DNA of 53,527 bases from a virus. Shown piece after piece: positions 12,787 to 36,911 of this stretch. The position numbers and the translations under genes were made by a program. The DNA lies in IMG/VR virus record IMGVR_UViG_3300044252_000008, positions 1-53,527 of that record. One strand, written 5' to 3'. The first letter of the stretch is position 1. Every line of letters starts with the position of its first letter. A model generated the notes under the pieces. It had not been told where the DNA came from. It saw only the letters and a list, made by a program, of their open reading frames with translations, and did not search any database.

Positions 12787-12788
12787 GG

Positions 12789-21930: not shown

Positions 21931-21938
21931 AGGGCCGC

Positions 21939-21954: not shown

Positions 21955-22060
21955 CGGGGCAAGGAAGATCTCCACCATCGCGCGCGATTACCGCGCCCGA
22001 ATGCGTGCGCGCGCGAGGCGGCCCCGGCAGCAGGGGGCAGGCCACCCCGCTCTGTGGCCC

Positions 22061-22369: not shown

Positions 22370-23052
22370 GGTCGCGTCCTCCCTTTCCTTACCACCGGAT
22401 TGTCCGAGCTACCCAGGGGCGCCGCCTTCACCGACACAGCACCACCCCTCTCCGTCATCACCACACCCAGCCTGAAGCACAGGTGCCGCAGCGCATCCCG
22501 CCTGTGCTCCGACACGCGCCCACCACCGCGACCAGCCCCACCACCACACACCCGCAGCATGCGCCGTCGCCCAAGCCACTCTTCCAACCGTTCCCCCGTG
22601 GCGAACCGCATGGCATCCGCGGGCTGTTGAAAGTACACCCCAGCGCCGAGGGCATACCTACCCATCCCCACCCCACCCTGCCCCGACACACCCAGTTCCC
22701 CACGCAGCCCGGCTGCCCGTGGCACCAGCAGGGTCGTAATCCCTGACATAACCATGACAGGATCCAGGTCTACGTTCTGTGTACGAAGACGGAAGTCTTC
22801 AATACACAGCGCCACCTCTTCACTCATGGAACCCGCCATCACAACACCAGACTTCACCAGCCCATGCACCCAATCCCCGAACTCAGCACAGATTTCCCAT
22901 GCCTGCACCGGGTGCGGCCCCTCCACCTCCCACGTCTCTAGCTCTACCACCGACGCAAGCGCATCACGCATGCCCGCCTCCATGCCCGGCCCGAAGATAC
23001 CCCGCGCCACACCCGTAACCTTCCCAGGGTCAATAGCCATGATGGCGATCAT
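22357..23052 (-). CDS. RuvC-like Holliday junction resolvase
   Basis: 231 aa from ATG 23052 (ATGA overlap). MAIDPGKVTG, LCIEDF and EHRRDALRH fit the RuvC-fold acidic catalytic residues. Confidence 0.75.
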   Translation of the reverse strand: MIAIMAIDPGKVTGVARGIFGPGMEAGMRDALASVVELETWEVEGPHPVQAWEICAEFGDWVHGLVKSGVVMAGSMSEEVALCIEDFRLRTQNVDLDPVMVMSGITTLLVPRAAGLRGELGVSGQGGVGMGRYALGAGVYFQQPADAMRFATGERLEEWLGRRRMLRVCGGGAGRGGGRVSEHRRDALRHLCFRLGVVMTERGGAVSVKAAPLGSSDNPVVRKGRTRPWAA

Positions 23053-23237
23053 GCCACTTCTAGCCCCAGCGCCTCGGTCGGTGACACCAGCGACAGGTAC
23101 TCTCTGGCCGGTGCTGGCACTGCCGTCCAGTAGCCCCACTCGTCGCCGATACGCCAGCAATGCACCATGCCCGATGCCCACTGCACACGAACCACCCCAG
23201 CGCAGTTGTCTCGTACGTATGCTTCCCAGTCAATCAT
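23049..23237 (-). CDS. Hypothetical small protein
   Basis: 62 aa from ATG 23237 (SD AAGGGGA, 4 nt spacing). Trp-rich. The longer 114-aa track ORF runs into the repeat-rich intergenic region. Confidence 0.5.
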   Translation of the reverse strand: MIDWEAYVRDNCAGVVRVQWASGMVHCWRIGDEWGYWTAVPAPAREYLSLVSPTEALGLEVA

Positions 23238-23261
23238 CAAATCCCCTTTCCAACACTGGCG

Positions 23262-23415
23262 GCAACCCCGCCCGGTTGGGCAGCCCCTCGAGGGGCTGTG
23301 CCCCACCAACGGGCCGGGTTGGGCACGGGCAACCCCGCCCGCAACCCCGCCCACCATGGTACGGGTTGCCCCAAATCGCCTGCAAATGAACACTTTCTAC
23401 TCATGGGCGGGGTTG
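23262..23415. repeat. Iteron-like array: GCAACCCCGCCC three times direct plus one inverted copy
   Basis: Direct copies at 23262-23273, 23329-23340 and 23341-23352. Inverted CAACCCCGCCC at 23405-23415. A partial copy lies at 23361-23372. Confidence 0.6.
23281..23298 (-). terminator. Perfect 18-bp palindrome CAGCCCCTCGAGGGGCTG after the primase gene
   Basis: 7-bp GC-rich arms around TCGA, in the 163-bp gap downstream of the primase stop. Confidence 0.5.
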
Positions 23416-25287
23416 GTCCCATCCGTACCCCACACCCCAGCGCTGGCGCCGCACCACACGGCCACCCTCGGGCTGCGCTACTGCGCGCTCCTGCACCCAC
23501 CCCTGTGTCTCCAGAGAATCCCACACCTTGCTGAAGACTTCTCGGTTCCCACCGACCTTGGTACGAATCTGGTCTTTGGTGAACTCGAACGGGTGCTCTT
23601 CTGTCAGGTCTCGTATGTCGCGCTCCACCCGCTGCCACCCATCGCTATGGCCCTCCGCATCATCACCCATGTGTTTGCGCACCGCCCATGTAACGGCACC
23701 CGTGTGCTCACCAGCATCTTCATCAAAGGCACCAACACACAGGTCTAGATCCCACTCCTTGCCACCCCACTGTCGCCCGCCAACTTCCAGCAGCAACTTG
23801 AACTCACCCGCTTCCACATCGGGCTTCTCACGATGTGTGATCAATAGCCAGCCATCCGCCCACTCCGCCATGCCCGTCATGGTCAGCCGCTCTAGGCCGC
23901 GGCCAGTGCCCGTCTTATTGAAGTGATCTACGATGTTGACAGACACACCAGCGGCAGTGCACGGCTCGCTCAGCTGGCGCAGCATACGACCGCGCTCGTA
24001 CAGGTTGGCTGCATTCACGTCAGCGTGGAAGGCATACAGCGGATCTATGCTGATGCGTGCGTAGCCCCGTGCCAGGTCTTCCTCCAGCCACTGCCGGAAC
24101 GTACGGCTGTTCACAGGCGCCGTCTCGAACTGCACCTCTAGCGGAACCTGCTTCAGGTCCACACCCATGGCTGCGGCCACGCGCTCCAAGCGCCGTGCGT
24201 ACGGGCCTGTGCCACCCTCGCCTACGTAGACCTTTACCGGCCGCGGCTCCGGCACGGCAAACCTGCCCAGGATGGGCACGCCAGCAGCTAGGCCCACGTT
24301 GACGATGGTGTCCACATACGACTTCAGCGTCTTCTTCACCCCACCAGTGACTGTCTCGCTGCCAGCCACCACCAAGCCCTGAACTAACCACGTGAAGGCG
24401 TGATCCTGCGCCACTAGTTCGTGCCCGCGCCACACCATGCGTGGGTCTACAGGCTGCTCGTCTACGATGCGTTGCTTGGCTACCTCCATCCCACGCAGGC
24501 GCATGTACTGCCTCCGCGCTTCTGCTTGGTACGCAGCCTCGCCACGGGGCTGTTCTGCCACCCACTTGACGATTCCATCCACCTCTTGCTGCACACCCGT
24601 CTTGGGCTGCGGGAACTGCCGGTTGATGGCGTGCAGCGCTTCCTTGATAGCATCTGGCTCCAGGCCCGCATGCCACAGCGTCATGCCTGTGTTGAACAGA
24701 CTCTCATGCCGCCCGCCCACCTCGATGGAGATCTCACCGAAGTCGCCGTCGGTGCCGTTGGTGCGCCCGGACAGCAGCTTTGCCACCCACGCTGCGGGCA
24801 TAGGGGTGAAGCCACTCAGCTGCTTCCAACGCTCGCCCATGCGATACGGCACACCATCCTCATCGGCACTGGGCGGCAGCAGCACGAACCCGCCGTCTCC
24901 GCGCACATCCACGCCACCCATAGCACTGAGCCGGGTAGGCTTGCCCGGTGGCGCCTGGTCGTTGTGAATGTCAATGCCAGGGTGGTCGTAGTACAGGTGC
25001 AACCCACCGCGCGGTGTGATGACACCCTTGGTCTCAGGTGGCACCAGAGCGCCCAGCGCCGCTCGGTTATCCACGTCCACTACCACCCAGCCATTATCCT
25101 TGCCGGTGGGCGCGGCGATGTTGGCCAGCGGCCACTTCTCCCACCAATCGCGGATGACAGCCAGGTCGTCTGTAGCCCCGTCCTTCCACTTCACGTATGG
25201 CTTCTTGGTGCCTGGCATGCACGGGAAGATCTTCACATGCCTGCGCGCCCACCACAGGGCCGCCCGGCGCATACTGGTGCCAGGCAT
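23401..25287 (-). CDS. Bifunctional primase-polymerase fused to a RepA/DnaB-type (AAA_25-like) helicase domain
   Basis: 628 aa. N-terminal WVVVDVD.. and GGLHLYY.. ..GGVDVRGDGGFVLLPPS are prim-pol motifs. The C-terminal half is P-loop-like (..GGVKKTLKS..). Confidence 0.85.
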   Translation of the reverse strand: MPGTSMRRAALWWARRHVKIFPCMPGTKKPYVKWKDGATDDLAVIRDWWEKWPLANIAAPTGKDNGWVVVDVDNRAALGALVPPETKGVITPRGGLHLYYDHPGIDIHNDQAPPGKPTRLSAMGGVDVRGDGGFVLLPPSADEDGVPYRMGERWKQLSGFTPMPAAWVAKLLSGRTNGTDGDFGEISIEVGGRHESLFNTGMTLWHAGLEPDAIKEALHAINRQFPQPKTGVQQEVDGIVKWVAEQPRGEAAYQAEARRQYMRLRGMEVAKQRIVDEQPVDPRMVWRGHELVAQDHAFTWLVQGLVVAGSETVTGGVKKTLKSYVDTIVNVGLAAGVPILGRFAVPEPRPVKVYVGEGGTGPYARRLERVAAAMGVDLKQVPLEVQFETAPVNSRTFRQWLEEDLARGYARISIDPLYAFHADVNAANLYERGRMLRQLSEPCTAAGVSVNIVDHFNKTGTGRGLERLTMTGMAEWADGWLLITHREKPDVEAGEFKLLLEVGGRQWGGKEWDLDLCVGAFDEDAGEHTGAVTWAVRKHMGDDAEGHSDGWQRVERDIRDLTEEHPFEFTKDQIRTKVGGNREVFSKVWDSLETQGWVQERAVAQPEGGRVVRRQRWGVGYGWDQPRP

Positions 25288-25343: not shown

Positions 25344-25631
25344 CTAGCACAGACGCTCCATCCACGCCACGCTCAGGGCCGCCACCTGGCTCAGTTCCTT
25401 GGCCAGCGCGTCGTCGCCCACGTCCCCATCGGTTACCAGCCCGTCCCGAGCCATAAGGTTCCTGGCCACTTCCCCGACTTCCTCAATGATCGCGCCCAGC
25501 CGCTGCCAGTCTGTCATCTCGGGATCACTGGGTGTGTACTTGAAGCGGCCCTCGGCCTTCAGCCGGTGTTGGCGTTCACGCTCGTGCGCCACCATCAGCA
25601 GAGTTTCAACGGGCAGCACTACCTGATCCAC
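25344..25631 (-). CDS. MazG-like nucleoside triphosphate pyrophosphohydrolase (small, phage type)
   Basis: About 95 aa (GTG 25631; other starts possible). LGAIIEEVGEVARNL .. ALAKELSQVAALSVAWMERL fits the EExxE helical MazG core. Confidence 0.55.
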   Translation of the reverse strand: MDQVVLPVETLLMVAHERERQHRLKAEGRFKYTPSDPEMTDWQRLGAIIEEVGEVARNLMARDGLVTDGDVGDDALAKELSQVAALSVAWMERLC

Positions 25632-26497
25632 CCGGCCGTGGGGTCGGCCAACCACTCCTTCTCGTCGATCTCATCCCACCGCCCGGCATCCACACGCTCG
25701 CGGATAGTGCACCCGCGATCGAAGTCTGCCTGGAACGGACACCGGCCCTGCGCGTAGCACACGGGCTTGAACAGCCCGCTCTCTGCGATGTGCCGCCACT
25801 GCCACCTGGCGCGCTCACTGCCGTCTACCCCGTTGTACGTCATGCTGCCCTCGTACTCCCAGATGGCTTGCACGATCTGCGCGCCCACCAGCCGCCACTC
25901 GAACTGCGCCTGCGTGCACAGCCGGTTGCCCAGGTGGTCCACGAGGTTGCGCAGGTTCGTCTTGTAGTTCAGGCGCGTCAGTGTGTCGTGGGGCAGCAGC
26001 CCGCGCGCCTCCTCAGCTGGCACACCCATGCCGATCAGGTGGTTGTACACCTCCCACGTGCGGCGCGTGTGCTCCACCCATAGCTTGTTCGCAGAGCGGT
26101 TGGACCGCATCATCGGCCCCGGCCTGGCAGCGATCTCCTCCTTCACTGCGAAGCGCATGCTCTCCTGCGCGTACACCGCCGTGCGCTGGCGCACCATCTG
26201 GTGGGTGAAGGCCCGCGTCACACCCTCCACCATGAAGTGCAGGTCCACCGCCTCCAGCGGCGCCTTCAGGTGCGTGGCGTTGGCCTGGTCCCACGCCCAG
26301 CGGCGCTCGTCGTCAGTCAGCTCTTGCAGGTTGCGCACCACGCGCCCGGTGTACATGAAGCAGAACGCAGCCATGGCGCCCAGCGGATCCGGGGTGGCGG
26401 ACAGCAGCGTAACCCGCGGCATCAGGTCGGGCATGGGTTCTGCCTCGTACATTGCCCTGTCCACGTACGTGCTAACTTCTGTACTTGGTTCAGTCAT
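25619..26497 (-). CDS. thyX: Flavin-dependent thymidylate synthase ThyX-like, with RQR in place of RHR
   Basis: 292 aa from ATG 26497 (ATGACTGA overlap with the upstream gene). ..VEGVTRAFTHQMVRQRTAVYAQESMRF.. aligns to the ThyX RHR(x)7S signature, with Gln replacing His. Confidence 0.75.
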   Translation of the reverse strand: MTEPSTEVSTYVDRAMYEAEPMPDLMPRVTLLSATPDPLGAMAAFCFMYTGRVVRNLQELTDDERRWAWDQANATHLKAPLEAVDLHFMVEGVTRAFTHQMVRQRTAVYAQESMRFAVKEEIAARPGPMMRSNRSANKLWVEHTRRTWEVYNHLIGMGVPAEEARGLLPHDTLTRLNYKTNLRNLVDHLGNRLCTQAQFEWRLVGAQIVQAIWEYEGSMTYNGVDGSERARWQWRHIAESGLFKPVCYAQGRCPFQADFDRGCTIRERVDAGRWDEIDEKEWLADPTAGWIR

Positions 26498-27164
26498 ACG
26501 ACACCTCCACATAGGGGTACAGCCGTTCCAGTAGGTCCTGCTCTCCAACTGCCACACCCATCTCATCCACACTTGACATCCGTACTGACCGGATGGGTGT
26601 GGGCAGGCACCCGCCCACGAACCCGCGGTTCCACTCGTAACCGTCCGCCCAGCGGCGCACGGCCTTCTCCTCCAACCCAGCTGCATCTGCCAGGGCCAGG
26701 ATGCCACCCATCTCGCGGGCCTTGGCCAGCACCCACATCCTGAACGGTATGAGTTCCAACTCGTGGTCGTTGAACAAGTGCTTGCGCCGTTCCACTGACA
26801 TGCGGGCCATCTCCACAGCTGCCACTGCCTTGTCCCGGCGGCGCCGTGCGTGCTCGTTGGCCCGCCTGCCCAGGGCTTGCTTCTCAGCAAGTGGCATGCG
26901 CGCATACCGCGCGCGGCCTTCGCCCCGCCTGCACGGCTGGCACACAGTGTCAATGGTGGGGTTCTTGGCCCGGCGCACCCGGCCGCCAGCTGTGCGCCCA
27001 CGCTTCCGCCAGCGCCACTTATAGTCCACCGCGTGCCGCCAGCGCCCACATTCACCAGCACATATGCGGCGGCCACAGATGATGGGGTTGTCAGTCATGC
27101 CACGCCCACCATGCACCCAGCAGCACGAGGCACACCAGTAGCCCGATGAAGTACCACATATCAC
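26490..27164 (-). CDS. Cys-rich protein with a C-terminal HTH-like segment
   Basis: 224 aa from GTG 27164 (GTGA overlap with the dnaE stop; alternative ATG at 27098). ICGRRICAGECGRW .. CQPCRR. GILALADAAGLEEKAVRRWADG is HTH-like. Confidence 0.55.
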   Translation of the reverse strand: MICGTSSGYWCASCCWVHGGRGMTDNPIICGRRICAGECGRWRHAVDYKWRWRKRGRTAGGRVRRAKNPTIDTVCQPCRRGEGRARYARMPLAEKQALGRRANEHARRRRDKAVAAVEMARMSVERRKHLFNDHELELIPFRMWVLAKAREMGGILALADAAGLEEKAVRRWADGYEWNRGFVGGCLPTPIRSVRMSSVDEMGVAVGEQDLLERLYPYVEVSYD

Positions 27165-30100
27165 TCATCGGGGTCTATCACCCACATGCGCCGCACATTC
27201 AGCTGCTGGCTGGACGCGTACGACGGTCGTATGCCTTCCACCAACAGCAGGTCCAGGCCCGGCCTGCACCCGAAGATCATTTCTCTGTATCGCGGGTAAC
27301 GCCAGCGATCCACCTTTACCACCACCCGGTCGTCCACGTCTGTGCAGGTCATGCTGGCCTGCTCTGTCAGGTGTGCGTCGCGCACGGTGGCAGGGTCCAG
27401 GTCCCGGCCGCGGGCACGTGACAACTCGAAGATGTCCTGGATGTTGGGCTTGGCCACCAAGGTGCCTAGCCATACCACCTTACCCACCCCGCTGACAAGG
27501 CCCTCCGCCGTATGGGTTGGCGCAGGTAGCGGCCCTAACGTGCCAGCCGCCAGCGCCGCCTGCACAGCTGCGATGTCCTTGCCCAGCTTGAACGCACCGA
27601 ACGGGTCCTCCGAGTCTACCCAGTCTATGATGTTCTGCACTGTTACCTTCCCGAAGCCCTTGAGCGCCAGCAGGTCTTCCCACTGGAACGTGTCGCGCCC
27701 GGCCTCCCACTGCTGGTCGCGCCACGCGATCACCTGCTGCGACTTCTTGGCACCCAGGCCCCGCACCTGGCGCAGGCCCGCGCGCAGCACCTTGGTGCCC
27801 ACGTTGCCCCACGTCGGCTCGCTGTGCTCCAAGTGGGGTGGCAGGATGGTCAGCCCATGCTTGTCTGCGTCACGCAGCAGGTCGTGCGTGCGCTCTGCGT
27901 TACCCGTGGCCTCGTGCAGGCAGGCCGCGAAGAACACAGCTGGGTGGTGCACCTTGAACCACATGGTCCAGTAGCCGATGAGCGCGTAGCTGGCACAGTG
28001 TGCTGCGTTGAAGCTGTACGCACCGCTGGTGGCCATGCCCGTCCACATGGCGTCAGCCACCACCTCGGGCACACCGCGCTCAGCAGCCCCGTCCAGGAAC
28101 TGCTGGCGCCTGGCGTAGAACAGCTGCTCGCCTTTCTTACGTGAGATGATGCCACGGATCTCGGCCACGCCTCTTGGGTTGAAGCCGCCCACCTCCCGTG
28201 CCAGGGCCAGGATCTGTTCTTGGTACACCAGCTGGCCCTTGGTGCTACTGGTCAGCCGCTCGTACAGCGGGTGCTGTATGGGTGCCACCTGGCGCCCGGC
28301 CTTGGTGGCTGCGTATGCCGACGCAGCGCCGTTCAGGATGGGGCCTGGCCTGCACAGTGCGATGCAGTCCATGATCTCGCTGAACTTCTCAGGCCGGATG
28401 GACTGTGTCACGTACCGGGTGGAGCGGCCCTCGAACTGGAAGATGCCCATAAGGTCGCCACGCTGGAAGCCTGCGTACACCTCGGGGTCATCCAGGGGCA
28501 GGTCGTACAGCGCCTGCACGGGCATGCCCAGGCGCTTGGCGCACGACCACAGCATGCCCATGGTGTTCAGCCCCAGGAAGTCCATCTTCAGCAAGCCCTG
28601 GCGCGCGGCTCCCCACTTGTCTAGCGCTACCACCTGCACCACGTTGCCGCTGCCCTTGGGAACCTCTCGTTCCATGGTGGTGGTGTAGTTGGTGATGGCT
28701 TGGTTGCTGAGCACCAGCCCGGCCGCGTGCACACCCACACCCTTGACGTTGCCCTCGATCAGCTGGGCCTTCTTCAGGTCTGGGTACTTCTCGAAGATCT
28801 CGGCAGCCTGTGGGAACTGGTCCACCGTGTCTTCAATAGTTGACGAAGCCCGCAGGTCGCCGGACGACCGCTCGATCAGGTAGTTCTTGAGTGTCTCCAC
28901 CTCGTACTTAGGCACGTTGAACACACGGGCCACGTCGTCCACGGCCAGCTTGTTCTTGAAGATGGTGAACGTGCCCACATTGCCCACGCAGTCCTCGCCC
29001 AGCATATCCACGTAGAACCGCCGCAGGGCTGGCCGGGCATCGGGCGGGAAGTCCAGGTCCACGTCGGGCAGGTCTTCTCGCGTCACATCGATGAACCTGT
29101 CAAACCGCAACAGGCCCTCGAACTCGTTGCGCAGTGGGTTCACCTCTGTGATGCGCAGCAGCCAGGCGGCCAGGCTACCGGCTGCGCTACCACGCGCAGG
29201 CCCCACGGGTATGCCCTGGTCTTTCATGAACACCACGCCGTCTGCCACCAGCAGGAAGTAATCCACGTAGCGCTTGCCTTCGATCAGGTCCATCTCATGG
29301 CGCAGCTGCTTCAGGTACCGCATGCGCTCGGCGCCGCGCAGCTGGTGGCAGCCCCGCCTGCGCCAGCCCGCCTTGAGCCGCCTGCGCCACTCGCTAACGG
29401 CATCGCCGCCCGGCCACTGCACCATGGGCTGTTTGGGCAGCACAGCCGTGCACGACTGCGCTACTTCCTCTGTGGACACCATGGCTTCCACGGCCTCAGC
29501 CTTACTCAGCCCTGTGGCGCGCAGCTTGCGGTAGATGCTGGCGTCGTTGGGTGGCACACACAGCTGGGCTGTGTAGCCCCAGTCGCGCACCTGCTGTTCC
29601 AGTGTGCGCTTCTCTCCAGGCCGCAGGTTGTGCAAGATCTGCTGTACTTCCCGCTCCTCGAGAAGTGTGTAGTGGCAGTCCATGGTGGCCACCAGTCGGC
29701 AGCCCACCGCCCGCGCTATACGTCCGGCTTGCGCGTTGAACCTGCGCGTGGTCTCGAGTTCCGGGAACGCCTGTACCTCGACGAGGTAGCTGTCGGTGCC
29801 GAACGTACGTGCGAATAGGCGCGCAACACGTAGGCCACGGCGGTACGACGCTTCCTCTGCTGGTATGCCCTTGCCTCCGACGGTAGCACAGCAGAGCAGG
29901 CTACCCTGGCAACCGCTCAGTACAAACAGCCCGGCCCTGTGCGCCACCAGCTGCGCCCACGTGACGACTGGCTCGTAGTAGAAGTCCCGCCAGGCACCCG
30001 ACACGAGCGTTAGCAGGTTGCGGTACCCCACTGCGTCCTTGGCCAGCAGTGTCAGGTGGTGTTTGCTCTGTGTCTCGGCGCCATCCATCCACTGCGGCCC

Positions 30101-30442
30101 CGTGGGCATGTACACCTCGCAGCCGAACAGTGGCTTCGGCCCACCCATCTCGTCGCATGCTTTCTCCAGTGCCACGTGGCTGTCTATGTTCCCATGCTCT
30201 GTCATGGCCAGGTGACTCATGTTCAGTTCCATGGCCCGGCGCACGTGGGCCTCGGGCAGCTGGTACCCGTCCATGTAGCTGTACGTGCTGTGGTGGTGCA
30301 GGCTGACGAACCGCATGGGCTTGCGGTTGCCCGTGGGCCTGCGCCGTACCGCCAGCGCAGGCCCGCCGTCCTTAGCCTTCCACGCCACCTTGACAGACGA
30401 CACATCGTGCCCGCCGTAGTGCAGTGGCTTGGCTTCTGTCAC
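27161..30442 (-). CDS. dnaE: DNA polymerase III alpha subunit (DnaE-type replicative polymerase)
   Basis: About 1093 aa from GTG 30442 (GTGA overlap; alternative ATG at 30316). PHP motif FVSLHHHSTYSYMDG. The size and order of the conserved blocks are typical of DnaE. Confidence 0.9.
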   Translation of the reverse strand: MTEAKPLHYGGHDVSSVKVAWKAKDGGPALAVRRRPTGNRKPMRFVSLHHHSTYSYMDGYQLPEAHVRRAMELNMSHLAMTEHGNIDSHVALEKACDEMGGPKPLFGCEVYMPTGPQWMDGAETQSKHHLTLLAKDAVGYRNLLTLVSGAWRDFYYEPVVTWAQLVAHRAGLFVLSGCQGSLLCCATVGGKGIPAEEASYRRGLRVARLFARTFGTDSYLVEVQAFPELETTRRFNAQAGRIARAVGCRLVATMDCHYTLLEEREVQQILHNLRPGEKRTLEQQVRDWGYTAQLCVPPNDASIYRKLRATGLSKAEAVEAMVSTEEVAQSCTAVLPKQPMVQWPGGDAVSEWRRRLKAGWRRRGCHQLRGAERMRYLKQLRHEMDLIEGKRYVDYFLLVADGVVFMKDQGIPVGPARGSAAGSLAAWLLRITEVNPLRNEFEGLLRFDRFIDVTREDLPDVDLDFPPDARPALRRFYVDMLGEDCVGNVGTFTIFKNKLAVDDVARVFNVPKYEVETLKNYLIERSSGDLRASSTIEDTVDQFPQAAEIFEKYPDLKKAQLIEGNVKGVGVHAAGLVLSNQAITNYTTTMEREVPKGSGNVVQVVALDKWGAARQGLLKMDFLGLNTMGMLWSCAKRLGMPVQALYDLPLDDPEVYAGFQRGDLMGIFQFEGRSTRYVTQSIRPEKFSEIMDCIALCRPGPILNGAASAYAATKAGRQVAPIQHPLYERLTSSTKGQLVYQEQILALAREVGGFNPRGVAEIRGIISRKKGEQLFYARRQQFLDGAAERGVPEVVADAMWTGMATSGAYSFNAAHCASYALIGYWTMWFKVHHPAVFFAACLHEATGNAERTHDLLRDADKHGLTILPPHLEHSEPTWGNVGTKVLRAGLRQVRGLGAKKSQQVIAWRDQQWEAGRDTFQWEDLLALKGFGKVTVQNIIDWVDSEDPFGAFKLGKDIAAVQAALAAGTLGPLPAPTHTAEGLVSGVGKVVWLGTLVAKPNIQDIFELSRARGRDLDPATVRDAHLTEQASMTCTDVDDRVVVKVDRWRYPRYREMIFGCRPGLDLLLVEGIRPSYASSQQLNVRRMWVIDPDE

Positions 30443-30801
30443 CAATCCCACCGCCCATCGCGGTCGCCGTCCCGCACACACCGGATGGCGAACACTGCGT
30501 TATTGATCACGTCTAGCAGGTCATCCACATCCGCCGCCTGCACTTCCTCGTGGTTCCAGATGGTACGCCATGCGCGCTCCACCTTCCAGCGCAGCTTGAA
30601 CAGGTTGCCGCGAGCGCCTTGGTTGCGCCAGTTGTCCTCGTACTTATCGTTCCGCTCTATGAACAGGTCGTACGCTTCCAGCAGCACCTTCATGTGATCG
30701 TCAGCTGGCTGGCTGCTACCGCCCATGTATGTGATGGGTGGTCTGTTGGGCGGGTGCCCACGGCCGCTGCCGGTCATTGTGATTGGGTCGTCAGAACCCA
30801 C
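30439..30801 (-). CDS. DUF1599-like all-helical protein (nucleotide-modification-associated family)
   Basis: 120 aa (GTG start; start uncertain). ..FIERNDKYEDNWRNQGARGNLFKLRWKVERAW .. DDLLDVINNAVFAI resembles the DUF1599 pattern KxxDYG..G..G..R..DK..R .. D..NYA as I remember it. Confidence 0.5.
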   Translation of the reverse strand: MGSDDPITMTGSGRGHPPNRPPITYMGGSSQPADDHMKVLLEAYDLFIERNDKYEDNWRNQGARGNLFKLRWKVERAWRTIWNHEEVQAADVDDLLDVINNAVFAIRCVRDGDRDGRWDW

Positions 30802-31150
30802 GCGGCTGCACCTCCACGCGGATGCCGCCCGGCCCGTACAGCCACAGCCGCTTCAGCGGGCTGTCCGGGTTGTGCCGGATGAGCCACGGGCTGCGTGTGC
30901 ACAGGGCCATGCGCGTGTCTGTCACCTTCAGGCACAGGTGCCCGTAGCCCATGGGCAATGGGTCCATGCCTCGGCCCACGATGTGGATGAGCAGATCGGA
31001 ATCCATATCCTGCCACCAGCGCACCACGTACTGGTCGTCCAGTGCCTCATCCGGTTGCACCTCATACAGCCCCAGCATTTCCATGAAGTCTGTCAGGGCT
31101 TGGGTGTGCACCACGTCCTCGGGCACTTGGTAGTTCACGTGCGCGATCAT
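30791..31150 (-). CDS. VOC (glyoxalase/bleomycin-resistance/dioxygenase fold) family protein
   Basis: 119 aa from ATG 31150 (TAATG junction). IAHVNYQVPED..FMEMLGLYEV .. GHLCLKVTD .. GPGGIRVEV show the paired beta-alpha-beta-beta-beta module pattern, with His/Glu at the metal positions. Confidence 0.65.
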   Translation of the reverse strand: MIAHVNYQVPEDVVHTQALTDFMEMLGLYEVQPDEALDDQYVVRWWQDMDSDLLIHIVGRGMDPLPMGYGHLCLKVTDTRMALCTRSPWLIRHNPDSPLKRLWLYGPGGIRVEVQPRGF

Positions 31151-31857
31151 TAGCGCACGCCACCGTACAGCGACAGGCCCGTGCCGCTGAGCCACGGGGC
31201 CACCGGCTCGTCCAGTAGCCAGCACACCACACGTGCGATGTCGCTGGGGTGCAAGTGGTCTTTCAGCCGCAGGTCCTTGCGCTGGTACTCCTCCGCCTCC
31301 CTGAGCCCGAAGCCGCGCTCTTCCATCATGGCTGCCACCACGCGGCCACCCATGGGCGTGCTGGGCACGTGGTACGGGTGCACTATGTGGAAGCTGTAGC
31401 CCAGCTGCGTCAGCTCCCAGGCCAGGCCCTGCACGGCGTGCGCCAGCCCCGCCTTGGCCGCGCAGTACGGCACGCAGCTGGTGGGGCTGTGATCGTACGC
31501 ATACGACCCGATCAGCACGCACTTGCCACCTTCCTCGCCGCGGGCTTCCACCCACGCACGCACACACTGCAACGGTAGTGTGAGGTTGGCGTGCACCAAC
31601 TCTGCGATGGTCAGGTCGTCAGTGCGATCGAACGGGGTGATACCCTCTCTGCCCAGCGTGACCACCAGCGCGTCGAAGTCGGCGAAGGCCACGTTCGGCA
31701 CACTGTAGATGGTGTCGTCGCCAAGGTCTTCACTACAGTCGTGCCAGGCCACGTCCCAGCCGTCCATGTCCAGCCGGTTATAGATGGCCTCACCAATGTT
31801 GCCGGTGCCCAGCCTGGCGCCCAACACCATGGCCTGGCTAATACTTGCGTGACTCAT
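31150..31857 (-). CDS. Short-chain dehydrogenase/reductase (SDR)
   Basis: 235 aa. Gly-rich dinucleotide motif LGTGNIGEAI and catalytic YCAAKAG (YxxxK). Confidence 0.8.
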   Translation of the reverse strand: MSHASISQAMVLGARLGTGNIGEAIYNRLDMDGWDVAWHDCSEDLGDDTIYSVPNVAFADFDALVVTLGREGITPFDRTDDLTIAELVHANLTLPLQCVRAWVEARGEEGGKCVLIGSYAYDHSPTSCVPYCAAKAGLAHAVQGLAWELTQLGYSFHIVHPYHVPSTPMGGRVVAAMMEERGFGLREAEEYQRKDLRLKDHLHPSDIARVVCWLLDEPVAPWLSGTGLSLYGGVR

Positions 31858-32494
31858 GCTCTTCGCTCCATTGTGCTAGTAGATTGCTGATGTCGGCCCA
31901 GGCCACTGACAGATTTTCTGCCGTCATCCCGTTCCAGTCGGCCTCGTAGTTGTAGTCCGTGCGGAGTAGAATAGGTGCTCCACGCACCACACTCAACAGC
32001 ACGCGTGGTTCGTCATCCAACACAGCCACCACGCGCCCAGGGTCCACACGTCGGTATAGCTCATGCACCTTATCTTCGTCAAACAGCAGCCCGTCGTACG
32101 GAATGCGGTTGCGCCGCAGCCACTCCACCGTGTCTGGGTCCACGCGGTCGTACCTGTCGTGCGGGCGGGTGGTCGTCACCCACACCTCACACAGCTTGGC
32201 CAGCCCTTCCATCATGTCCACTGCCCCCGGACGCGGTGGCATGCTGCGCTTCAGCCCGCTCTGTCGGAACGCCAGCTTGATGGTGCGGAAGGTGGTAGTG
32301 TCCACACCATATGCCTGGCAGAACCAGACCCGGTACCGCCAGCGGCCGTCATAGTGGCCAGCTTCAATCTTCTGTGTTCTACCCAGCCAGTCCTCGGCGA
32401 ACAGCTGGAAGTGCCGGTGCCAGTCACCTAGCGTGCCGTCCAGGTCTATGGCCACCACTGGGTGTACCACCTCACTACATTTCGTGCACAGCAT
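31838..32494 (-). CDS. HAD-superfamily phosphatase, 5'(3')-deoxyribonucleotidase-like
   Basis: 218 aa (alternative GTG start at 32470). VAIDLDGTLGD is the HAD DxDxT motif. The size and the late Asp pair (VLDDEP) fit the phage NT5C-type nucleotidases. Confidence 0.7.
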   Translation of the reverse strand: MLCTKCSEVVHPVVAIDLDGTLGDWHRHFQLFAEDWLGRTQKIEAGHYDGRWRYRVWFCQAYGVDTTTFRTIKLAFRQSGLKRSMPPRPGAVDMMEGLAKLCEVWVTTTRPHDRYDRVDPDTVEWLRRNRIPYDGLLFDEDKVHELYRRVDPGRVVAVLDDEPRVLLSVVRGAPILLRTDYNYEADWNGMTAENLSVAWADISNLLAQWSEEHESRKY

Positions 32495-33221
32495 TTTCAG
32501 CCTTCCTGTACGCGTGGTGCAATAGCACGCCAGGTGTCCACGTGCCCCAGCGCCCGATACGCACGATGCGCTGGTGGCACGTGCAGTCCGTCTGCATCAC
32601 CTTCCTGCCCACCCGCGCACCCTCTACCTCATGCGGGTACTCAGTGACGGCTACATCGAACACCCTGCTGGCCCGGAACCACTGTTCACTGCGACGGCCG
32701 TTGTACACCATGTGCTGGTGCTGCACGATGCCGGGCGCATCATCCACGTACCACACGCGACGCTCAGGGAACTTGTGCCCGATGTTCTCACACAGCTTGT
32801 GGGCCGGTGCGCTGTTCAATACCAGCGTGTAGGCTGCCGCCAGATCCCTGGCCTCCTGCTGCCCCACTGCCAGCTGGTACACAGCGGCCCCGTACAGGCC
32901 CCACAGGGCCTCGTACACGGGACGCAGCGCCCAGGCCGGGTGGTTGCCCTGCGCCAGCCGCTGCCAGCTTGTGCGGGCCTGTGGGTCGCCGTACACCTTC
33001 TCCGCATACACACCACCCTCGCCCAGCTTGGTGAACTTGATCAGCCCGTCGGGCCTGCCGTTGCTGATGCCAGGTGTTGATGCGTGCAGGTACACGCCAC
33101 CGGCCACAGGGCTGGGCTCTACCACGTTGCTGTACACCACCGGCTCGTGGCCTGCGCGTGCCACCGCGTGGGCGGCCAGCAGCCCGGCAGGGCCACAGCC
33201 GATAATGGCCACCTGTGTCAC
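32475..33221 (-). CDS. Small FAD/NAD(P)-binding Rossmann oxidoreductase
   Basis: 248 aa. GTG start in a GTGA overlap. N-terminal VAIIGCGPAGLLAAHAVARAGHEPVVY is a GxGxxG beta-alpha-beta motif. Confidence 0.7.
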   Translation of the reverse strand: MTQVAIIGCGPAGLLAAHAVARAGHEPVVYSNVVEPSPVAGGVYLHASTPGISNGRPDGLIKFTKLGEGGVYAEKVYGDPQARTSWQRLAQGNHPAWALRPVYEALWGLYGAAVYQLAVGQQEARDLAAAYTLVLNSAPAHKLCENIGHKFPERRVWYVDDAPGIVQHQHMVYNGRRSEQWFRASRVFDVAVTEYPHEVEGARVGRKVMQTDCTCHQRIVRIGRWGTWTPGVLLHHAYRKAENAVHEM

Positions 33222-33505
33222 TGTTCCGGCTCCTCAAGCCGCAGGAACGCATATAGCTCGTTGCGCACTTGCCTGAGGTACGAGTTGTACCTGCGTGGTT
33301 CCACCAGCGCCTGGCCGCTGTTATAGTCTTCCAGCAGTACCTTGAAGCGCGGTGTGACTGTGTACACCCACTCGGCCTGGTCACCCCTGTCGCCAGGGTA
33401 CTCCACCAGTTCCATGGTCAGGTGCCTGATCCCATGCGCGCGCAGGTACGTGGCCAGTGCCAGGTCGTCTGTCCGGTGGGCCTCCATGTTCGGTATTACG
33501 CTCAT
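33218..33505 (-). CDS. Hypothetical protein (DUF5659-like)
   Basis: 95 aa. DLALATYLRAHGI.. resembles the DUF5659 N-terminus. It is the first gene after a hairpin. Confidence 0.5.
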   Translation of the reverse strand: MSVIPNMEAHRTDDLALATYLRAHGIRHLTMELVEYPGDRGDQAEWVYTVTPRFKVLLEDYNSGQALVEPRRYNSYLRQVRNELYAFLRLEEPEQ

Positions 33506-33566: not shown

Positions 33567-34364
33567 CTAGAAAGGCTCTTCGCCGTCGTCGGCGCGCAGC
33601 CTGGCGATGAGCACCTTACGGGCGCCGTTGGTCTTCAGCTCCCGCTCCTTCAGTTCCTTCTTCAGGTCGGCGACTGTCATGTCGTCGTACCCGTCATCGT
33701 CGGCCTCGGCCTCGGCTTCGTCTTCCTCGTCTTCTTCCTCTTCCTCGTCTTCGTCCGGCTCCTCTTCGTCCTCTTCGTCCTCGGGCCAGGCTTCCACCAC
33801 CGCCTTGCGGATGTCGTCGTCGCTCATGGACTTGAGCACCTTCACGTCCAGGCCCTCGGTCTTGATCAGGGCCTTCAGCTGGGCGCGCGTCATGCTGTCC
33901 AGGTCCAGGCCGTCGTCGCCCTCGTCCGGCTCGCCTTCCTCTTCCTCGGCCTCGTCCTGCTCGGGCATGGCCATGACCTTGCTGATCTTGGGCCGGTAGT
34001 CGCCGTCCTGGTCGCTGTCACTCTTCAGGCGCAGCTGTGCGGCCTTGCCCACCAGCTTCTCGGTGTCCAGCGTGCCCTTGGCGCCCAGGCCCAGCGCCAG
34101 CATGAACTCTTTGGTGCGGGCCTTGCTGACAGGGTGCGCGTCCGCGCCCAGCAGCGGGTAGTACCACACGGGCATGAAGCTGCCGTTCAGTGCCTTGCCC
34201 GCCGCGTCGTGCGTCAGGTCGAAGATCACTTCCAGCATCTGGTTGCCGCTGCTGCTGGGCTTGGGGCCGTCCACGGTGCGGACCTTGGCCCGGTACACAC
34301 CCACGGGTGCGTGAGCCTGTGTGACATCCTCTACGTCACTGAAGTCGTACTTTACCTTCGGCAT
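33567..34364 (-). CDS. DUF669-type single-strand DNA-binding protein with acidic linker and C-terminal SAP domain
   Basis: 265 aa. The N-terminal ~130 aa are DUF669-like (..APVGVYRAKV..MLEVIFDL..). There are long Asp/Glu runs. MTVADLKKELKERELKTNGARKVLIARLRA is a SAP motif. Confidence 0.7.
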   Translation of the reverse strand: MPKVKYDFSDVEDVTQAHAPVGVYRAKVRTVDGPKPSSSGNQMLEVIFDLTHDAAGKALNGSFMPVWYYPLLGADAHPVSKARTKEFMLALGLGAKGTLDTEKLVGKAAQLRLKSDSDQDGDYRPKISKVMAMPEQDEAEEEEGEPDEGDDGLDLDSMTRAQLKALIKTEGLDVKVLKSMSDDDIRKAVVEAWPEDEEDEEEPDEDEEEEEDEEDEAEAEADDDGYDDMTVADLKKELKERELKTNGARKVLIARLRADDGEEPF

Positions 34365-34379: not shown

Positions 34380-35201
34380 TTAGCTTGTGCGCCTGCGTAG
34401 GCGCCTGACATTGCTGGGCTTGCTGCTGGCGGCCGGGCTGCCCAGCGGTGCGCCACGGCCTGCCTCCATCAGCTGCACCAGCTTGGGCATGGTGGGGTCC
34501 ACGACGCGGTGCGTCTTGGTGTCCATGTCAAACTGGTCCTTCGCGTAGTACCTGTCTGTTGCGTGTGTTCGTAGCACTCTCCTGTTCTTCTGCCCTCCGA
34601 TGGTTGTAACTTCCATGAACAGCGTAGCGTTGGTGTAGCCACAGAACTTGCTGCTCATGTTCTTGCCTTGCACCCAGGGCATCAACTTGCGATCTTCCTC
34701 TGGGTCCTCGCTGGGTAGTAGCTGCGCGCAGTGCGCAGTCCAGCCGAAGTTGAATGTGTCCGGCCCCACCACATGCCGCATCCACACACCCAGCCGGTGC
34801 ATGTTGATGCCGTACTCGCCTTTGTCGGGGCCGTACCTGGCACGGGCGGGCTTCTCATGCACCACCGTGTCCCAGATGTCATCAAGCAGATGGTCCTGCA
34901 TCAGGGACACGCTGTCCAGCCACACCCAGCTGTACTGCTCACCATCTTGGCGCAGGTAGTCCAGCATGCTGTTCATGCCTTCCCAGTCGTACAGCACAGC
35001 CTCTTCCACCTTGCCCGCATCCTCGGGCAGCATGGCGTCGGTGTGGTCGGTGGGTGGCCGGATCAGCAGCGTCTTACCCAGGCGCGCGCTGGTGCCAGCC
35101 AGCCGCGTCTTACCCACGCCAGGGTCGCTGTACACGCACACGCGGGCATGCTTGCTGGGCGTCGTGGCAGGCTGTATGGCCGGGTGCTTAGCCACAGCCA
35201 C
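34380..35201 (-). CDS. AAA_24 / Sak4-like recombination ATPase
   Basis: About 273 aa from GTG 35201 (or 35195). Walker A VYSDPGVGKTRLAG and Walker B-like WVWLDSVS. The track start at 35213 would overlap the zinc-ribbon mini-ORF. Confidence 0.8.
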   Translation of the reverse strand: MAVAKHPAIQPATTPSKHARVCVYSDPGVGKTRLAGTSARLGKTLLIRPPTDHTDAMLPEDAGKVEEAVLYDWEGMNSMLDYLRQDGEQYSWVWLDSVSLMQDHLLDDIWDTVVHEKPARARYGPDKGEYGINMHRLGVWMRHVVGPDTFNFGWTAHCAQLLPSEDPEEDRKLMPWVQGKNMSSKFCGYTNATLFMEVTTIGGQKNRRVLRTHATDRYYAKDQFDMDTKTHRVVDPTMPKLVQLMEAGRGAPLGSPAASSKPSNVRRLRRRTS

Positions 35202-35289
35202 TCGTCTCCCCACATTGCGTGCACGTCACACACGTGCCTGTCTGGATCATCAGCCCACCACACCTCTTGCAAACCTCGGTACGATTCAT
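35188..35289 (-). CDS. 33-aa zinc-ribbon mini-protein
   Basis: Read by hand: MNRTEVCKRCGGLMIQTGTCVTCTQCGETSGCG. SD AGGAG 6 nt upstream. The ATG shares a base with the upstream stop (TGATG). It is below the track cut-off. Confidence 0.5.
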   Translation of the reverse strand: MNRTEVCKRCGGLMIQTGTCVTCTQCGETSGCG

Positions 35290-35511: not shown

Positions 35512-35877
35512 CTAGTTGTTCGGGGCCGCGTCACGGCGCCTTTCGGTTACACACTCTTCGCAGTCACAGTGGGCGCTGAGCCAGAACAACTGGTACGCAG
35601 CGTTCGCTGCTGCATCGAACGCCACCTTGGCACCCTTGACGGCATCCAGCATGGCCTTGGCCAGTTCTGCGTGTTCAGGCGAGTCGCTGTTGCCCGCCAG
35701 GCTGGCAGCACACCGCACCAGTTCGCGGCTGTGCTGGTACACCTGCGTGGTCAGCGCCAGGTGCTGGGCAATGGGGTCACCCTCAGTCAGCATCTCCACC
35801 ATGGCTCCAGGCCCCATGCCCAGCGCCATGCGCTTCAGGTCGTCTACAGTAATATCTTCATCGGTCATGGTCGTCAC
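35512..35877 (-). CDS. Hypothetical protein
   Basis: About 118-121 aa (GTG 35877 or ATG 35868; it overlaps the nuclease gene end). C-terminal CDCEEC. Confidence 0.55.
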   Translation of the reverse strand: MTTMTDEDITVDDLKRMALGMGPGAMVEMLTEGDPIAQHLALTTQVYQHSRELVRCAASLAGNSDSPEHAELAKAMLDAVKGAKVAFDAAANAAYQLFWLSAHCDCEECVTERRRDAAPNN

Positions 35878-36892
35878 TCAGTTCGTGGTCAGCGTATGGG
35901 TTCCAGGTGATGGTGGTCTGGGCCAGGACCTCTTGCCAGTCCCCACCCGTCTCATGTAGCTCGCACGCCTCACGCACGGCGCAGCCCCGGCAGTTGGGGA
36001 ACATCAGGTAGCCAGGGTTCTTGTACAGCGGCAGCTGCCCGGCACGGGCCAGCAGCAGTTCCTGTGCCTCCTGCACCACACGCTCGTGCATGTTGCGGCG
36101 GTCTGTCTCATCGCGGTACACAGGCACGCGTGAGAAGTACGGCGCAGGCTGGCGCTTGCTTACACTGCCGTCCTTGTTCAGCAAGTGGCCCTCAGCGTTG
36201 CGCCGTGCATCCGGGTCAGGCGCGCTCTTGCGCAGGAACGTGTACAGGATGTCGCTAAGCATCTCACCAGCAGCCAGCAGGCCCTGCCGGTGCAACCACT
36301 TGGGTCCGTATGTCCAGTACATGCCAGCCTGCTCATCCATGGGCAGCCCGTCCAGGCTGATGGCCGTGCACGTCTTGAACTCTTTGAACGACAGGCGCTT
36401 GGTCTTACGGTGGCGCCACACCCCGTCGAAGGTACCGACTGCCTTGAAGGTGAAGGGTGGGTACACCAATGCGCTCTTACCCTCCTCCAGCCATACACGG
36501 CGCTCGGGCACACGCACCGGCAGCTGGAACGTCTGCTCACTGCTGATCACCTCGTACTCCTCGTCCTCAGCTGCGTACCGTTCAACGTACCCGTGCAGCA
36601 TGGCCTGGCCTAGATCCAGCGCGTTCACCCACTCTTCATCCACAAACACATCAAACCCACGGTCCTTCTGTTCAGCGGCCTGCTCGTAGTACAGCTTCTC
36701 AAACACATCCCACGGTCGTGGGCCGCGCTTGGTGCCGGGCACGTAGTACGCAGCCAGCCCAGCATGGACCAAGCTGCCGAAACGCAAGGCCCCGGCAGCC
36801 TGTGCCGCTTGCCGCGCATCACGGTAGGTCCAGGCCCACCTGTGGCGGCAAGTCTTCCACGCCTGCACTTCACTGTTCCGCACCAGAAGCAC
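35858..36892 (-). CDS. Cas4/RecB-like PD-(D/E)XK exonuclease with four-Cys cluster
   Basis: About 344 aa from GTG 36892 (downstream of TACAACC and GGAGG). FDGVW..SFKEFKT is the D..ExK motif. Cys in WKTCRHRW plus CRGCAVREAC matches the Cas4/AddB iron-sulfur Cys pattern. Confidence 0.8.
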   Translation of the reverse strand: MLLVRNSEVQAWKTCRHRWAWTYRDARQAAQAAGALRFGSLVHAGLAAYYVPGTKRGPRPWDVFEKLYYEQAAEQKDRGFDVFVDEEWVNALDLGQAMLHGYVERYAAEDEEYEVISSEQTFQLPVRVPERRVWLEEGKSALVYPPFTFKAVGTFDGVWRHRKTKRLSFKEFKTCTAISLDGLPMDEQAGMYWTYGPKWLHRQGLLAAGEMLSDILYTFLRKSAPDPDARRNAEGHLLNKDGSVSKRQPAPYFSRVPVYRDETDRRNMHERVVQEAQELLLARAGQLPLYKNPGYLMFPNCRGCAVREACELHETGGDWQEVLAQTTITWNPYADHELSDDHDR

Positions 36893-36911
36893 GCTCTTAG
36901 ATCCTCCATTA

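Follow-up and report, generated by a model that had tools for sequence, protein, structure and literature searches.

A phage flavoprotein, HAD phosphatase, and Nmad1-like protein form the conserved core of a candidate nucleotide-directed block associated with DnaE and ThyX

This study concerns a group of small enzymes encoded beside the replicative polymerase of a phage, in IMG/VR virus record IMGVR_UViG_3300044252_000008, a 53,527-bp contig from a Joint Genome Institute (JGI) metagenome with a G+C content of ~64%; the term window is used here for this whole contig. The island under study consists of 10 contiguous minus-strand genes (25344-33505). Sequence comparisons across phages resolve its small enzymes into a conserved core, made up of a flavoprotein, a HAD phosphatase, and a DUF1599/Nmad1-like protein, and an optional pair, a short-chain dehydrogenase/reductase (SDR) and a VOC-fold protein. 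We propose that the island is an ancient, nucleotide-directed accessory block of the DnaE and ThyX replication module, a proposal that in our judgment stands an even chance of being correct. More than 100 isolated actinophages already carry generic annotations for the gene set ("oxidoreductase," "phosphatase," and "FabG-like reductase"), e.g., for Troll4 gp61-gp68. The division into core and optional members, the remote link from actinophages to PB1-like phages, and the fusions described below were not found in the literature searched. The 10 genes are as follows.

33218-33505, minus strand: DUF5659 protein, 95 aa, first gene of the overlap chain and not an enzyme of the set (Pfam PF18903, 6.9e-7)
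32475-33221, minus strand: minimal flavin adenine dinucleotide (FAD)/NAD(P)-binding flavoprotein-like oxidoreductase, 248 aa, conserved core member (phrog_8720, 7.4e-41 over the full length)
31838-32494, minus strand: HAD phosphatase of the NT5C / PNKP-phosphatase type, 218 aa, core member (Pfam NT5C, 2.9e-9)
31150-31857, minus strand: classical SDR, 235 aa, optional and paired with the VOC-fold protein (Pfam adh_short, 2.2e-12)
30791-31150, minus strand: predicted VOC-fold (glyoxalase / Fos-type) protein, 119 aa, optional (AlphaFold2 [AF2] model plus Foldseek)
30439-30801, minus strand: helical DUF1599/Nmad1-like protein, 120 aa, core member (phrog_1485, 1.2e-5)
27161-30442, minus strand: DnaE-type replicative DNA polymerase with PHP, polymerase core, fingers, and HhH (phrog_405, 2.7e-256)
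26490-27164, minus strand: Cys-rich protein, 224 aa
25619-26497, minus strand: ThyX flavin-dependent thymidylate synthase (Pfam Thy1, 8.1e-29)
25344-25631, minus strand: candidate MazG-like all-alpha nucleoside triphosphate (NTP) pyrophosphatase, 95 aa (phrog_2831, 4e-6)

The association of the core with the polymerase was followed in 82 related loci, comprising 80 IMG/VR loci and those of Streptomyces phage Rooney and Microbacterium phage Ajin, using iterated hidden Markov models (HMMs) built from the window proteins. The dnaE gene followed the flavoprotein gene on the same strand in 70 of the 70 loci with enough downstream DNA, at a gap of 320 to 5,749 nt (median, 1,865), and the 12 loci without dnaE each end no more than 2.9 kb from the flavoprotein gene. 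Of the 70 loci that reach dnaE, 63 encode the Nmad1-like protein, 54 the HAD phosphatase, 24 the SDR, and 6 the window-type VOC protein; none lacks both the HAD phosphatase and the Nmad1-like protein. Across all 82 loci, the HAD gene was present in 65, immediately after the flavoprotein gene, the Nmad1-like gene in 68, the SDR gene in 27, and the window-type VOC gene in 6, each time right after the SDR gene. ThyX was encoded in 44 of the 45 loci having at least 9.9 kb of downstream DNA. The smallest arrangement observed was flavoprotein, Nmad1-like protein, and DnaE, and the flavoprotein, HAD phosphatase, and Nmad1-like protein persist together at 31-50% identity. A first-pass annotation of the window, made from the sequence alone, had treated the five enzymes upstream of dnaE as one unit; the core trio of that unit is indeed conserved, whereas the SDR and VOC protein are optional and the five genes are not a fixed set.

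The same gene set and order occur in Cluster D mycobacteriophages (Troll4, PBI1, and PLot; Dclasvirinae) and their Gordonia, Microbacterium, Streptomyces, and Arthrobacter phage relatives. Troll4 encodes the flavoprotein (gp61), a nucleotidase-type HAD protein (gp62), a methyltransferase (gp63), an Nmad1-like protein (gp64), a FabG-like SDR (gp65), DnaE (gp66), and ThyX (gp68), and phages of this group carry exonuclease and Sak4-like recombination genes upstream, as does the window. Rooney and Ajin have the annotated order oxidoreductase, phosphatase, and, further along, DnaE. However, the Troll4-group proteins are just 28-42% identical to those of the window, with no nucleotide-level match, and where the window has a short 119-aa VOC protein and a MazG-like gene, Troll4 instead has a methyltransferase in the interval. 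Literature searches on DUF1599, Nmad1, FabG-like mycobacteriophage proteins, and actinophage oxidoreductases with DnaE/ThyX returned genome announcements and annotation mentions only, and no functional studies of the Troll4-group island genes were found there. The first-pass annotation had also remarked that a flavoprotein, an SDR, and a VOC protein together fit no known phage nucleotide-salvage or DNA-hypermodification pathway, and the literature searched contained no pathway that uses the enzyme set.

Within isolated phages, DnaE-like polymerases are far more widespread than the flavoprotein (1,166 versus 124 records; in these 124 actinophage records the flavoprotein is annotated "oxidoreductase"). 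The flavoprotein and ThyX counts are nearly equal by genus, at 32/32 for Mycobacterium, 36/36 for Microbacterium, 44/55 for Gordonia, and 9/12 for Streptomyces phages, so the flavoprotein tracks the ThyX-bearing subtype of the DnaE module rather than DnaE in general. We considered the flavoprotein as an obligate partner of ThyX or DnaE and did not adopt this idea, since most DnaE phages lack it; to our knowledge, ThyX elsewhere functions without a partner of this type.

A remote version of the block is present in phages of Gram-negative hosts. Serratia phage MTx was the only nonactinophage match of the window SDR search, and its region encodes a hypothetical protein of 318 aa (gp077), a thymidylate synthase (gp075), a HAD-superfamily "polynucleotide kinase" (gp074), a FabG-like SDR (gp073), a glyoxalase/bleomycin-resistance superfamily protein (gp071), an exonuclease subunit (gp070), DnaE (gp069), and a MazG-like protein (gp063). 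Pbunavirus crassa has the MTx layout minus the SDR and VOC genes, and Wifcevirus Bas98 has it with both. The 318- to 335-aa proteins of MTx, Pbunavirus, and Wifcevirus show remote homology to the window flavoprotein (hhalign, 95.6%, E = 1.2e-8, 187 columns), and the two groups have a C-terminal GRFATWRN / GRWGxW motif in common. This PB1-type flavoprotein was found in 362 phage records (292 from Pseudomonas, 27 from Escherichia, and 9 from Serratia phages; others include Rhizobium and Xanthomonas phages). The "polynucleotide kinase" proteins carry an N-terminal HAD phosphatase domain (Pfam HAD_PNKP, 1.3e-10 for crassa_57) and a C-terminal Nmad1-like domain (hhalign, 78%, E = 1.8e-5), with no kinase domain detected by Pfam. 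Judged by these matches, they are predicted fusions of two core domains that separate genes encode in the window. The fusions were located as follows (coordinates within each locus).

6734-7762, locus L102: HAD::Nmad1 fusion, crassa_57
9954-11378, locus L101: HAD::Nmad1 fusion, MTx gp074
5967-6842, locus L104: HAD::Nmad1 fusion, Bas98_0050

Pbunavirus, Wifcevirus, and Myosmarvirus (MTx) thus resemble the window in having the remote flavoprotein, ThyX, DnaE, a MazG-like protein, and a HAD plus an Nmad1-like domain, which in MTx and Wifcevirus are joined by a FabG-like SDR and, after it, a VOC-like protein. They differ in that they are myoviruses of Gram-negative hosts with fused HAD and Nmad1 domains and a longer, 318- to 335-aa flavoprotein, in that ThyX is encoded upstream of the polymerase, in that they have a separate epsilon-type exonuclease subunit, and in that the VOC-like family of MTx and Wifcevirus has no detectable sequence relation to the VOC protein of the window. 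The conserved linkage of homologues to dnaE and thyX, which the first-pass annotation had named as a check on its proposals, therefore extends to phages of Gram-negative hosts.

The optional pair shows a recurrence of its own. The SDR scored well above the adh_short cutoff (47.3 versus 26.6 bits) and contains the LGARLGTG cofactor motif (TGxxxGxG, with Leu replacing Thr) and the HANLT, IGSYAY, and YCAAK motifs, which align with ketoreductase 3sju and supply the Asn-Ser-Tyr-Lys catalytic residues; its best PDB matches were generic ketoreductases (1e-9). At least 171 metagenome relatives of ~230 aa were found, all of those listed being on contigs of 115 kb or less, and related SDRs are encoded by MTx (HMM, 1.6e-47) and Bas98 (5.5e-48). 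The window VOC protein had no Pfam (E ≤ 0.1), PHROG, or PDB sequence match, so that it did not belong to the Pfam Glyoxalase family by sequence, and a search of the PDB with its family profile recovered no VOC structure. Its AF2 model, with a predicted local distance difference test (pLDDT) score of 85, nonetheless contains the two beta-alpha-beta-beta-beta modules of the VOC fold, and Foldseek aligned it with FosA, FosX, FosB, GloA2, and L-DOPA dioxygenase (E ~1e-5, query TM-score [TMq] of 0.6-0.74, and probability of 1.0 for Fos and GloA). Residues H4, H71, and E113 are invariant in eight sequences, a His/His/Glu set that presumably matches the FosA metal-binding triad, and the protein is probably metal dependent, as far as can be judged from these residues. 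The predicted fold shares its paired beta-alpha-beta-beta-beta modules with the known VOC metalloenzymes (FosA/FosB/FosX, glyoxalase I, and extradiol dioxygenases), and the invariant His, His, and Glu lie where metal ligands would be expected; the window protein differs from these enzymes in being shorter, at 119 aa, and in lacking any sequence-level Pfam or PDB match. Only eight relatives of this type turned up in a search of 5.8 billion proteins.

A second family occupies the position after the SDR in other loci, including L002, L064, L066, L068, and L038/L040, whose proteins are homologous to MTx gp071 (BLASTP, 1e-8 to 1e-20), and two of its members illustrate it.

10194-10652, locus L002: second post-SDR family, Ajin gp58
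8483-9013, locus L101: second post-SDR family, MTx gp071

Its members are 150 to 180 aa long, have invariant FNY, HTN, and DT motifs, and are weakly VOC-like (Pfam Glyoxalase_4, 0.011; PDB 3gm5, 0.0097); the family was found in 55 phage records, from Escherichia, Serratia, Xanthomonas, Microbacterium, Pantoea, Erwinia, and Aeromonas phages. An hhalign comparison of the window VOC family with this MTx gp071-type family detected no homology. Two VOC-like families that are unrelated in sequence therefore fill the same slot after the same SDR, and this is the strongest indication of cooperation between the SDR and the VOC protein. In addition, locus L030 (IMGVR_UViG_3300046529_000421) encodes at 12379-13185 a 268-aa in-frame fusion of an N-terminal window-type VOC protein and an Nmad1-like part (residues 172-265), joined by a linker of ~25 aa; in the window, the corresponding genes are in different frames, with an overlap of 11 nt.

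The flavoprotein carries a GCGPAG dinucleotide motif at its N terminus and was modeled by AF2 at a pLDDT of 97.6, with the GxGxxG beta-alpha-beta motif and two-domain fold of glutathione-reductase-type FAD oxidoreductases. Its Foldseek neighbors were VioD, DAAO, UGM, PHBH, and Tet destructases (TMq of ~0.55, probability of 1.0, E ~1e-7), which are 10-17% identical to it and 100 to 150 residues longer. All of its Pfam and NCBIfam FAD-family matches were confined to residues 2-48 and fell below the cutoffs, single-sequence and profile searches of the PDB matched the N-terminal Rossmann motif only, and a PDB search with the profile of the PB1-type relatives gave that motif only or nothing. Comparisons with Pfam, NCBIfam, PDB profiles, and hhalign placed it in none of the specific characterized FAD-oxidoreductase subfamilies checked. 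We also considered UDP-galactopyranose mutase, an idea that arose from Foldseek and the C-terminal GRWGxW motif, and rejected it at an hhalign probability of 2% against Escherichia coli Glf. The family comprised 1,046 clusters at E ≤ 1e-10 in an exhaustive HMM search covering 1.84 billion representatives, and almost every cluster listed was ~250 aa long. When 185,579 species, each represented by one genome, were scanned with a peptide pattern, there were two full-length matches, both on contigs of metagenome-assembled genomes with the same module; the scan relied on this single pattern, which divergent cellular relatives may have escaped. The family is essentially restricted to phages.

Among the remaining proteins, the HAD phosphatase exceeded the NT5C cutoff over residues 12-184 (37.5 versus 24.8 bits) and contains AIDLDGTL, with the DLDGT motif I. 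It also matched phrog_415, "polynucleotide kinase" (8.6e-14), and PHROG and Pfam matches in relatives favor a PNKP 3'-phosphatase type equally. The Nmad1-like gene adjoins dnaE on its upstream side. Its product had no direct Pfam match; PF07659, which Pfam names "Nucleotide modification associated domain 1," was matched by 7 of the 53 members of its HMM-defined family (best, 1.6e-6). The long forms of this protein in Streptomyces-type phages (315 to 400 aa) owe their extra length to a charged low-complexity tail with no Pfam domain. DnaE matched DNA_pol3_alpha (1.6e-53), the finger domain (7.9e-33), and PHP (1e-29) in Pfam. ThyX scored 101.2 bits against a Thy1 cutoff of 24.8 and has the signature motif RQRTAVYAQESMR, an RQR variant of RHR; with NCBIfam TIGR02170 it reached 79.3 bits, slightly below the equivalog cutoff of 87.9. 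The MazG-like candidate had no Pfam match, contains EEVGE (EExxE), and belongs to a family whose profile weakly matches Bacillus subtilis YpjD (2gta, E = 0.0086) and 5ie9 (0.054), a weak but consistent basis for this putative assignment. The Cys-rich protein, a putative HTH protein in the first-pass annotation, had no Pfam, PHROG, or NCBIfam match to support that label, and homologues of it are encoded downstream of dnaE in five related loci. NCBIfam held no specific equivalog for any of the small island proteins.

These results bear on the protein assignments of the first-pass annotation, whose quoted peptide motifs were all found in the translations. The predicted Rossmann flavoprotein is consistent with the high-scoring AF2 model and its FAD-enzyme fold, and the predicted VOC fold with the AF2 model and Foldseek. 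The deoxyribonucleotidase-like HAD phosphatase, the SDR, and the RQR ThyX agree with the respective Pfam matches and, for the latter two, with the cofactor and catalytic or signature motifs, while the DUF1599-like assignment is supported by transitive homology through the family members that match PF07659. The MazG-like pyrophosphatase is made plausible by EEVGE and the YpjD profile match.

The 10 genes of the island are tightly packed. The nine junctions described by the first-pass annotation are all present: GTGA at 33218-33221 (where the DUF5659 gene stop overlaps the flavoprotein start), 30439-30442, and 27161-27164; TAATG at 31148-31152; and overlaps of 20 nt at 32475-32494 and 31838-31857, 11 nt at 30791-30801, 8 nt at 26490-26497, and 13 nt at 25619-25631. 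Several of these overlaps hinge on the choice of start codon. The JGI gene calls place the flavoprotein start at 33212 (245 aa) and the SDR start at 31830 (226 aa), so that both overlaps turn into gaps of 5 to 7 nt. The flavoprotein start at 33221 is preceded by a GAGGAG Shine-Dalgarno sequence and agrees with the N-terminal consensus of the family, and the dnaE start could lie anywhere from 30442 to 30388, with tblastn similarity to phage PLot beginning at residue 22. With either set of starts, the 10 genes are contiguous, with gaps of no more than 7 nt. A crude gene set covering the whole window has 55 junctions, of which 17 are overlaps and 26 show gaps of at most 10 nt; nine tight junctions in succession is the longest such run of the genome, although the type of packing is the same as elsewhere. 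The gene run fits a single transcription unit, given that a scan for promoters and terminators within it found no sites above chance. Tight packing alone is no evidence of shared function. Homologues of the DUF5659 protein were found in 31 of the 82 related loci, mostly ~3 kb upstream.

The island lies within a replication block in the middle of the contig, and the minus strand carries every convincing gene of the window. Neighboring genes of this block are as follows.

40149-41951, minus strand: helicase
35858-36925, minus strand: Cas4-type exonuclease
34380-35213, minus strand: Sak4-like ATPase
33567-34364, minus strand: acidic SAP-domain protein, 265 aa (Pfam SAP, 3e-12, a C-terminal DNA-binding domain)
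23401-25287, minus strand: primase-polymerase/AAA protein

The SAP-domain protein has long Asp/Glu runs and is located between the Sak4-like ATPase and DUF5659 genes, in the slot where a single-strand-binding or recombination accessory protein is expected. Virion genes occupy both contig ends (1-21400 and 42000-53527), those for terminase, portal, and endolysin at the low end and those for baseplate, tail, and decoration-like proteins at the other. The contig resembles a circularly permuted phage genome that is complete or nearly so. Between the terminase and the primase-polymerase genes (21400-23400), there are few convincing open reading frames (ORFs), namely those for a 274-aa phrog_1981 protein and a 102-aa product. 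The strongest GC skew of the contig (-0.31) falls in the 2-kb bin 22001-24000, where the AT skew is reversed (+0.07), and a search for repeats in the strong-skew stretch at 21.3-23.5 kb gave short, chance-level matches only. A megablast search of the island against 50,697 phage records returned no nucleotide-level match, and the nearest DnaE proteins, at 41-42% identity, are those of Mycobacterium phage PLot, Microbacterium phage Hiddenleaf, and Streptomyces phage ShakeNBake. The phage is therefore a new, distant relative of a large group of actinophages.

The first-pass annotation had suggested that the island tailors a nucleotide and leads to modified DNA, and the genome itself bears on the strong form of this idea, in which the modification would be protective. 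Palindrome counts over the whole contig (1-53527) were compared with a maximal-order Markov expectation and revealed near elimination of several sites: GCCGGC (0 observed versus 50 expected), GGGCCC (0 versus 31), CCCGGG (1 versus 24), AGGCCT (3 versus 27), ACCGGT (0 versus 15), CTGCAG (3 versus 20), and GACGTC (0 versus 8.6). TGCA was also depleted (218 versus 308). Strong avoidance of palindromes is typical of phages with restriction-exposed DNA, and it suggests long exposure of this phage to host type II restriction enzymes. Characterized systems include the Z-genome system (PurZ/DatZ/MazZ/DpoZ), thymidine hypermodification (5-hmdU kinase, aGPT-Pplase, and flavin-dependent lyases), and 7-deazaguanine modification by DpdA; one known class of phage modification pathway employs a flavoenzyme. 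Known nucleotide-level systems resemble the window in that small nucleotide enzymes, a MazG-type pyrophosphatase, and a phosphohydrolase cluster with a dedicated polymerase. They differ from it in their defining enzymes: Pfam and PHROG scans of the replication region and most larger ORFs found no deoxynucleoside monophosphate (dNMP) hydroxymethylase, dNMP kinase, 5-HMUDK kinase, aGPT-Pplase, DNA transferase, DNA glycosyltransferase, DpdA/TGT, or PurZ, and the window genome avoids restriction sites. Pbunavirus phages, which carry the core, have DNA that is routinely cut by restriction enzymes (PMC4482731) and have been rebooted from yeast-cloned DNA (PMC10913387). Given the near loss of restriction palindromes, the lack of any known modification enzyme in these scans, and the digestibility and infectivity of Pbunavirus genomes, a genome-wide protective DNA modification is unlikely in this phage, and the strong form of the earlier suggestion is weakened by the first two of these observations.

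A more limited version of the idea deserves separate weighing. In it, the flavoprotein, alone or assisted by the SDR and VOC protein, would make a noncanonical (deoxy)nucleotide, the HAD phosphatase, MazG-like protein, and Nmad1-like protein would clear or channel the pools, and DnaE would incorporate the product into partly modified DNA. The core does include a member of the "Nucleotide modification associated domain 1" family, and a dedicated polymerase and ThyX accompany the set in every case. Wifcevirus phages, which have the full set, are reported to be insensitive to every restriction system tested other than EcoP1_I by no known protection mechanism, although recognition sites occur in their genomes, and S2 Table of the Wifcevirus restriction paper appears to list 36 EcoRI sites for Bas98, its column order being inferred. 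This insensitivity, a correlation only, keeps a modification or antirestriction role alive for the SDR-VOC-bearing versions. Against such tailoring stand the site avoidance, the missing hypermodification enzymes, and the Pbunavirus results described above, as well as the presence of ThyX, which implies ordinary dTMP synthesis, and we regard it as unlikely. Its broader extension, in which the core and the SDR-VOC pair would be an unrecognized prereplicative nucleotide-tailoring pathway feeding DnaE and also the missing genome-protection mechanism of Wifcevirus, appears to us quite unlikely. The first-pass annotation had offered, as a second suggestion, that the enzymes counter DNA-targeting host metabolites. 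In a broadened form, the SDR and VOC protein, perhaps together with the flavoprotein, would inactivate DNA-damaging host antibiotics or endogenous electrophiles (e.g., methylglyoxal) during replication. The structural neighbors fit this picture, with FosA/FosB/FosX and glyoxalase I for the VOC protein, whose His/His/Glu set may correspond to the FosA metal-binding triad, tetracycline destructases and PHBH-type hydroxylases for the flavoprotein, and polyketide ketoreductases for the SDR. These matches are, however, generic at the superfamily level (TMq of 0.55-0.74, 10-21% identity), and the flavoprotein has neither the motifs nor the size of group A monooxygenases, its sequence match being limited to the N-terminal Rossmann motif. 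The SDR-VOC pair is also found in phages of Escherichia, Serratia, Xanthomonas, Pantoea, Erwinia, Aeromonas, and Microbacterium, a range that misfits a defense specific to antibiotic producers, and it always lies within a nucleotide/replication block. With the same set in Escherichia, Serratia, Xanthomonas, and Pseudomonas phages and a core that travels with ThyX and DnaE rather than with host chemistry, this suggestion is weakened, and we consider detoxification very doubtful.

It could also be that there is no joint function, the region upstream of dnaE being a permissive slot for unrelated accessory genes and the packing ordinary phage economy. The flavoprotein-dnaE interval of relatives does vary widely, containing UDG-superfamily and dCTP-deaminase-like proteins, S-adenosylmethionine-dependent and N6/N4 DNA methyltransferases, Asn-synthase-like proteins, and many ORFans; overlapping or abutting genes are common throughout the window; and the SDR is sometimes encoded outside the interval. 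A mere slot would not readily account for the joint persistence of the flavoprotein, HAD phosphatase, and Nmad1-like protein and their rearranged recurrence in a distant myovirus lineage, for the HAD::Nmad1 and VOC-Nmad1 fusions, or for an SDR followed by either of two nonhomologous VOC-like families, and we hold this explanation to be quite improbable. A nucleotide-directed role for the block is favored because of its association with DnaE, ThyX, and the MazG-like protein, the type of the HAD phosphatase, the Nmad1 domain, and the nucleotide and DNA enzymes found in the interval. Several points weigh against it. The term "nucleotide-directed" is guilt by association, and none of the five proteins has a known substrate. 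The flavoprotein is, from its model, a predicted minimal two-domain FAD-type protein with no characterized relative beyond the N-terminal dinucleotide-binding motif, and the Nmad1-like family gave only a nonsignificant match to the all-alpha NTP-pyrophosphatase fold (2p06, E = 0.26). The rarity of the window-type VOC protein (6 of 82 loci) means that the five genes are no obligate set, and in some loci the SDR gene lies downstream of dnaE. In addition, much of the linkage within actinophages could be explained by vertical inheritance of a syntenic replication module instead of selection for a joint function.

If the island is a nucleotide-directed accessory block, its core would consist of an FAD-type flavoprotein, a HAD phosphatase of the 5'(3')-nucleotidase/PNKP type, and a small DUF1599/Nmad1-like helical protein, the last of which may be a nucleotide- or phosphate-binding partner of the phosphatase. 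We infer that these three proteins act on one shared metabolite. The SDR followed by the VOC-fold metalloenzyme would be an optional unit, and the MazG-like pyrophosphatase and ThyX would complete the set. The block, presumably expressed together with the polymerase as a tightly packed unit, may have (deoxy)nucleotides or their small-molecule derivatives as substrates and thereby condition the supply of precursors to the phage polymerase. A protective modification of the DNA across the genome is probably not its end product in this phage.

In summary, the flavoprotein, in its actinophage or PB1-like form, is encoded by ~490 of the 50,697 phage genomes searched, and its family comprises more than 1,000 clusters, none of them functionally characterized. 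Pbunavirus phages are reported to be among those most used for personalized therapy of Pseudomonas aeruginosa (PMC11990801). The set is also present in BASEL phages that are compatible with E. coli K-12 and show unexplained restriction resistance, and the question of its function is therefore testable in E. coli. A conserved, phage-only set of enzymes wired to the replicative polymerase and ThyX could plausibly yield new nucleotide chemistry or a new means of managing deoxynucleoside triphosphate pools during infection.

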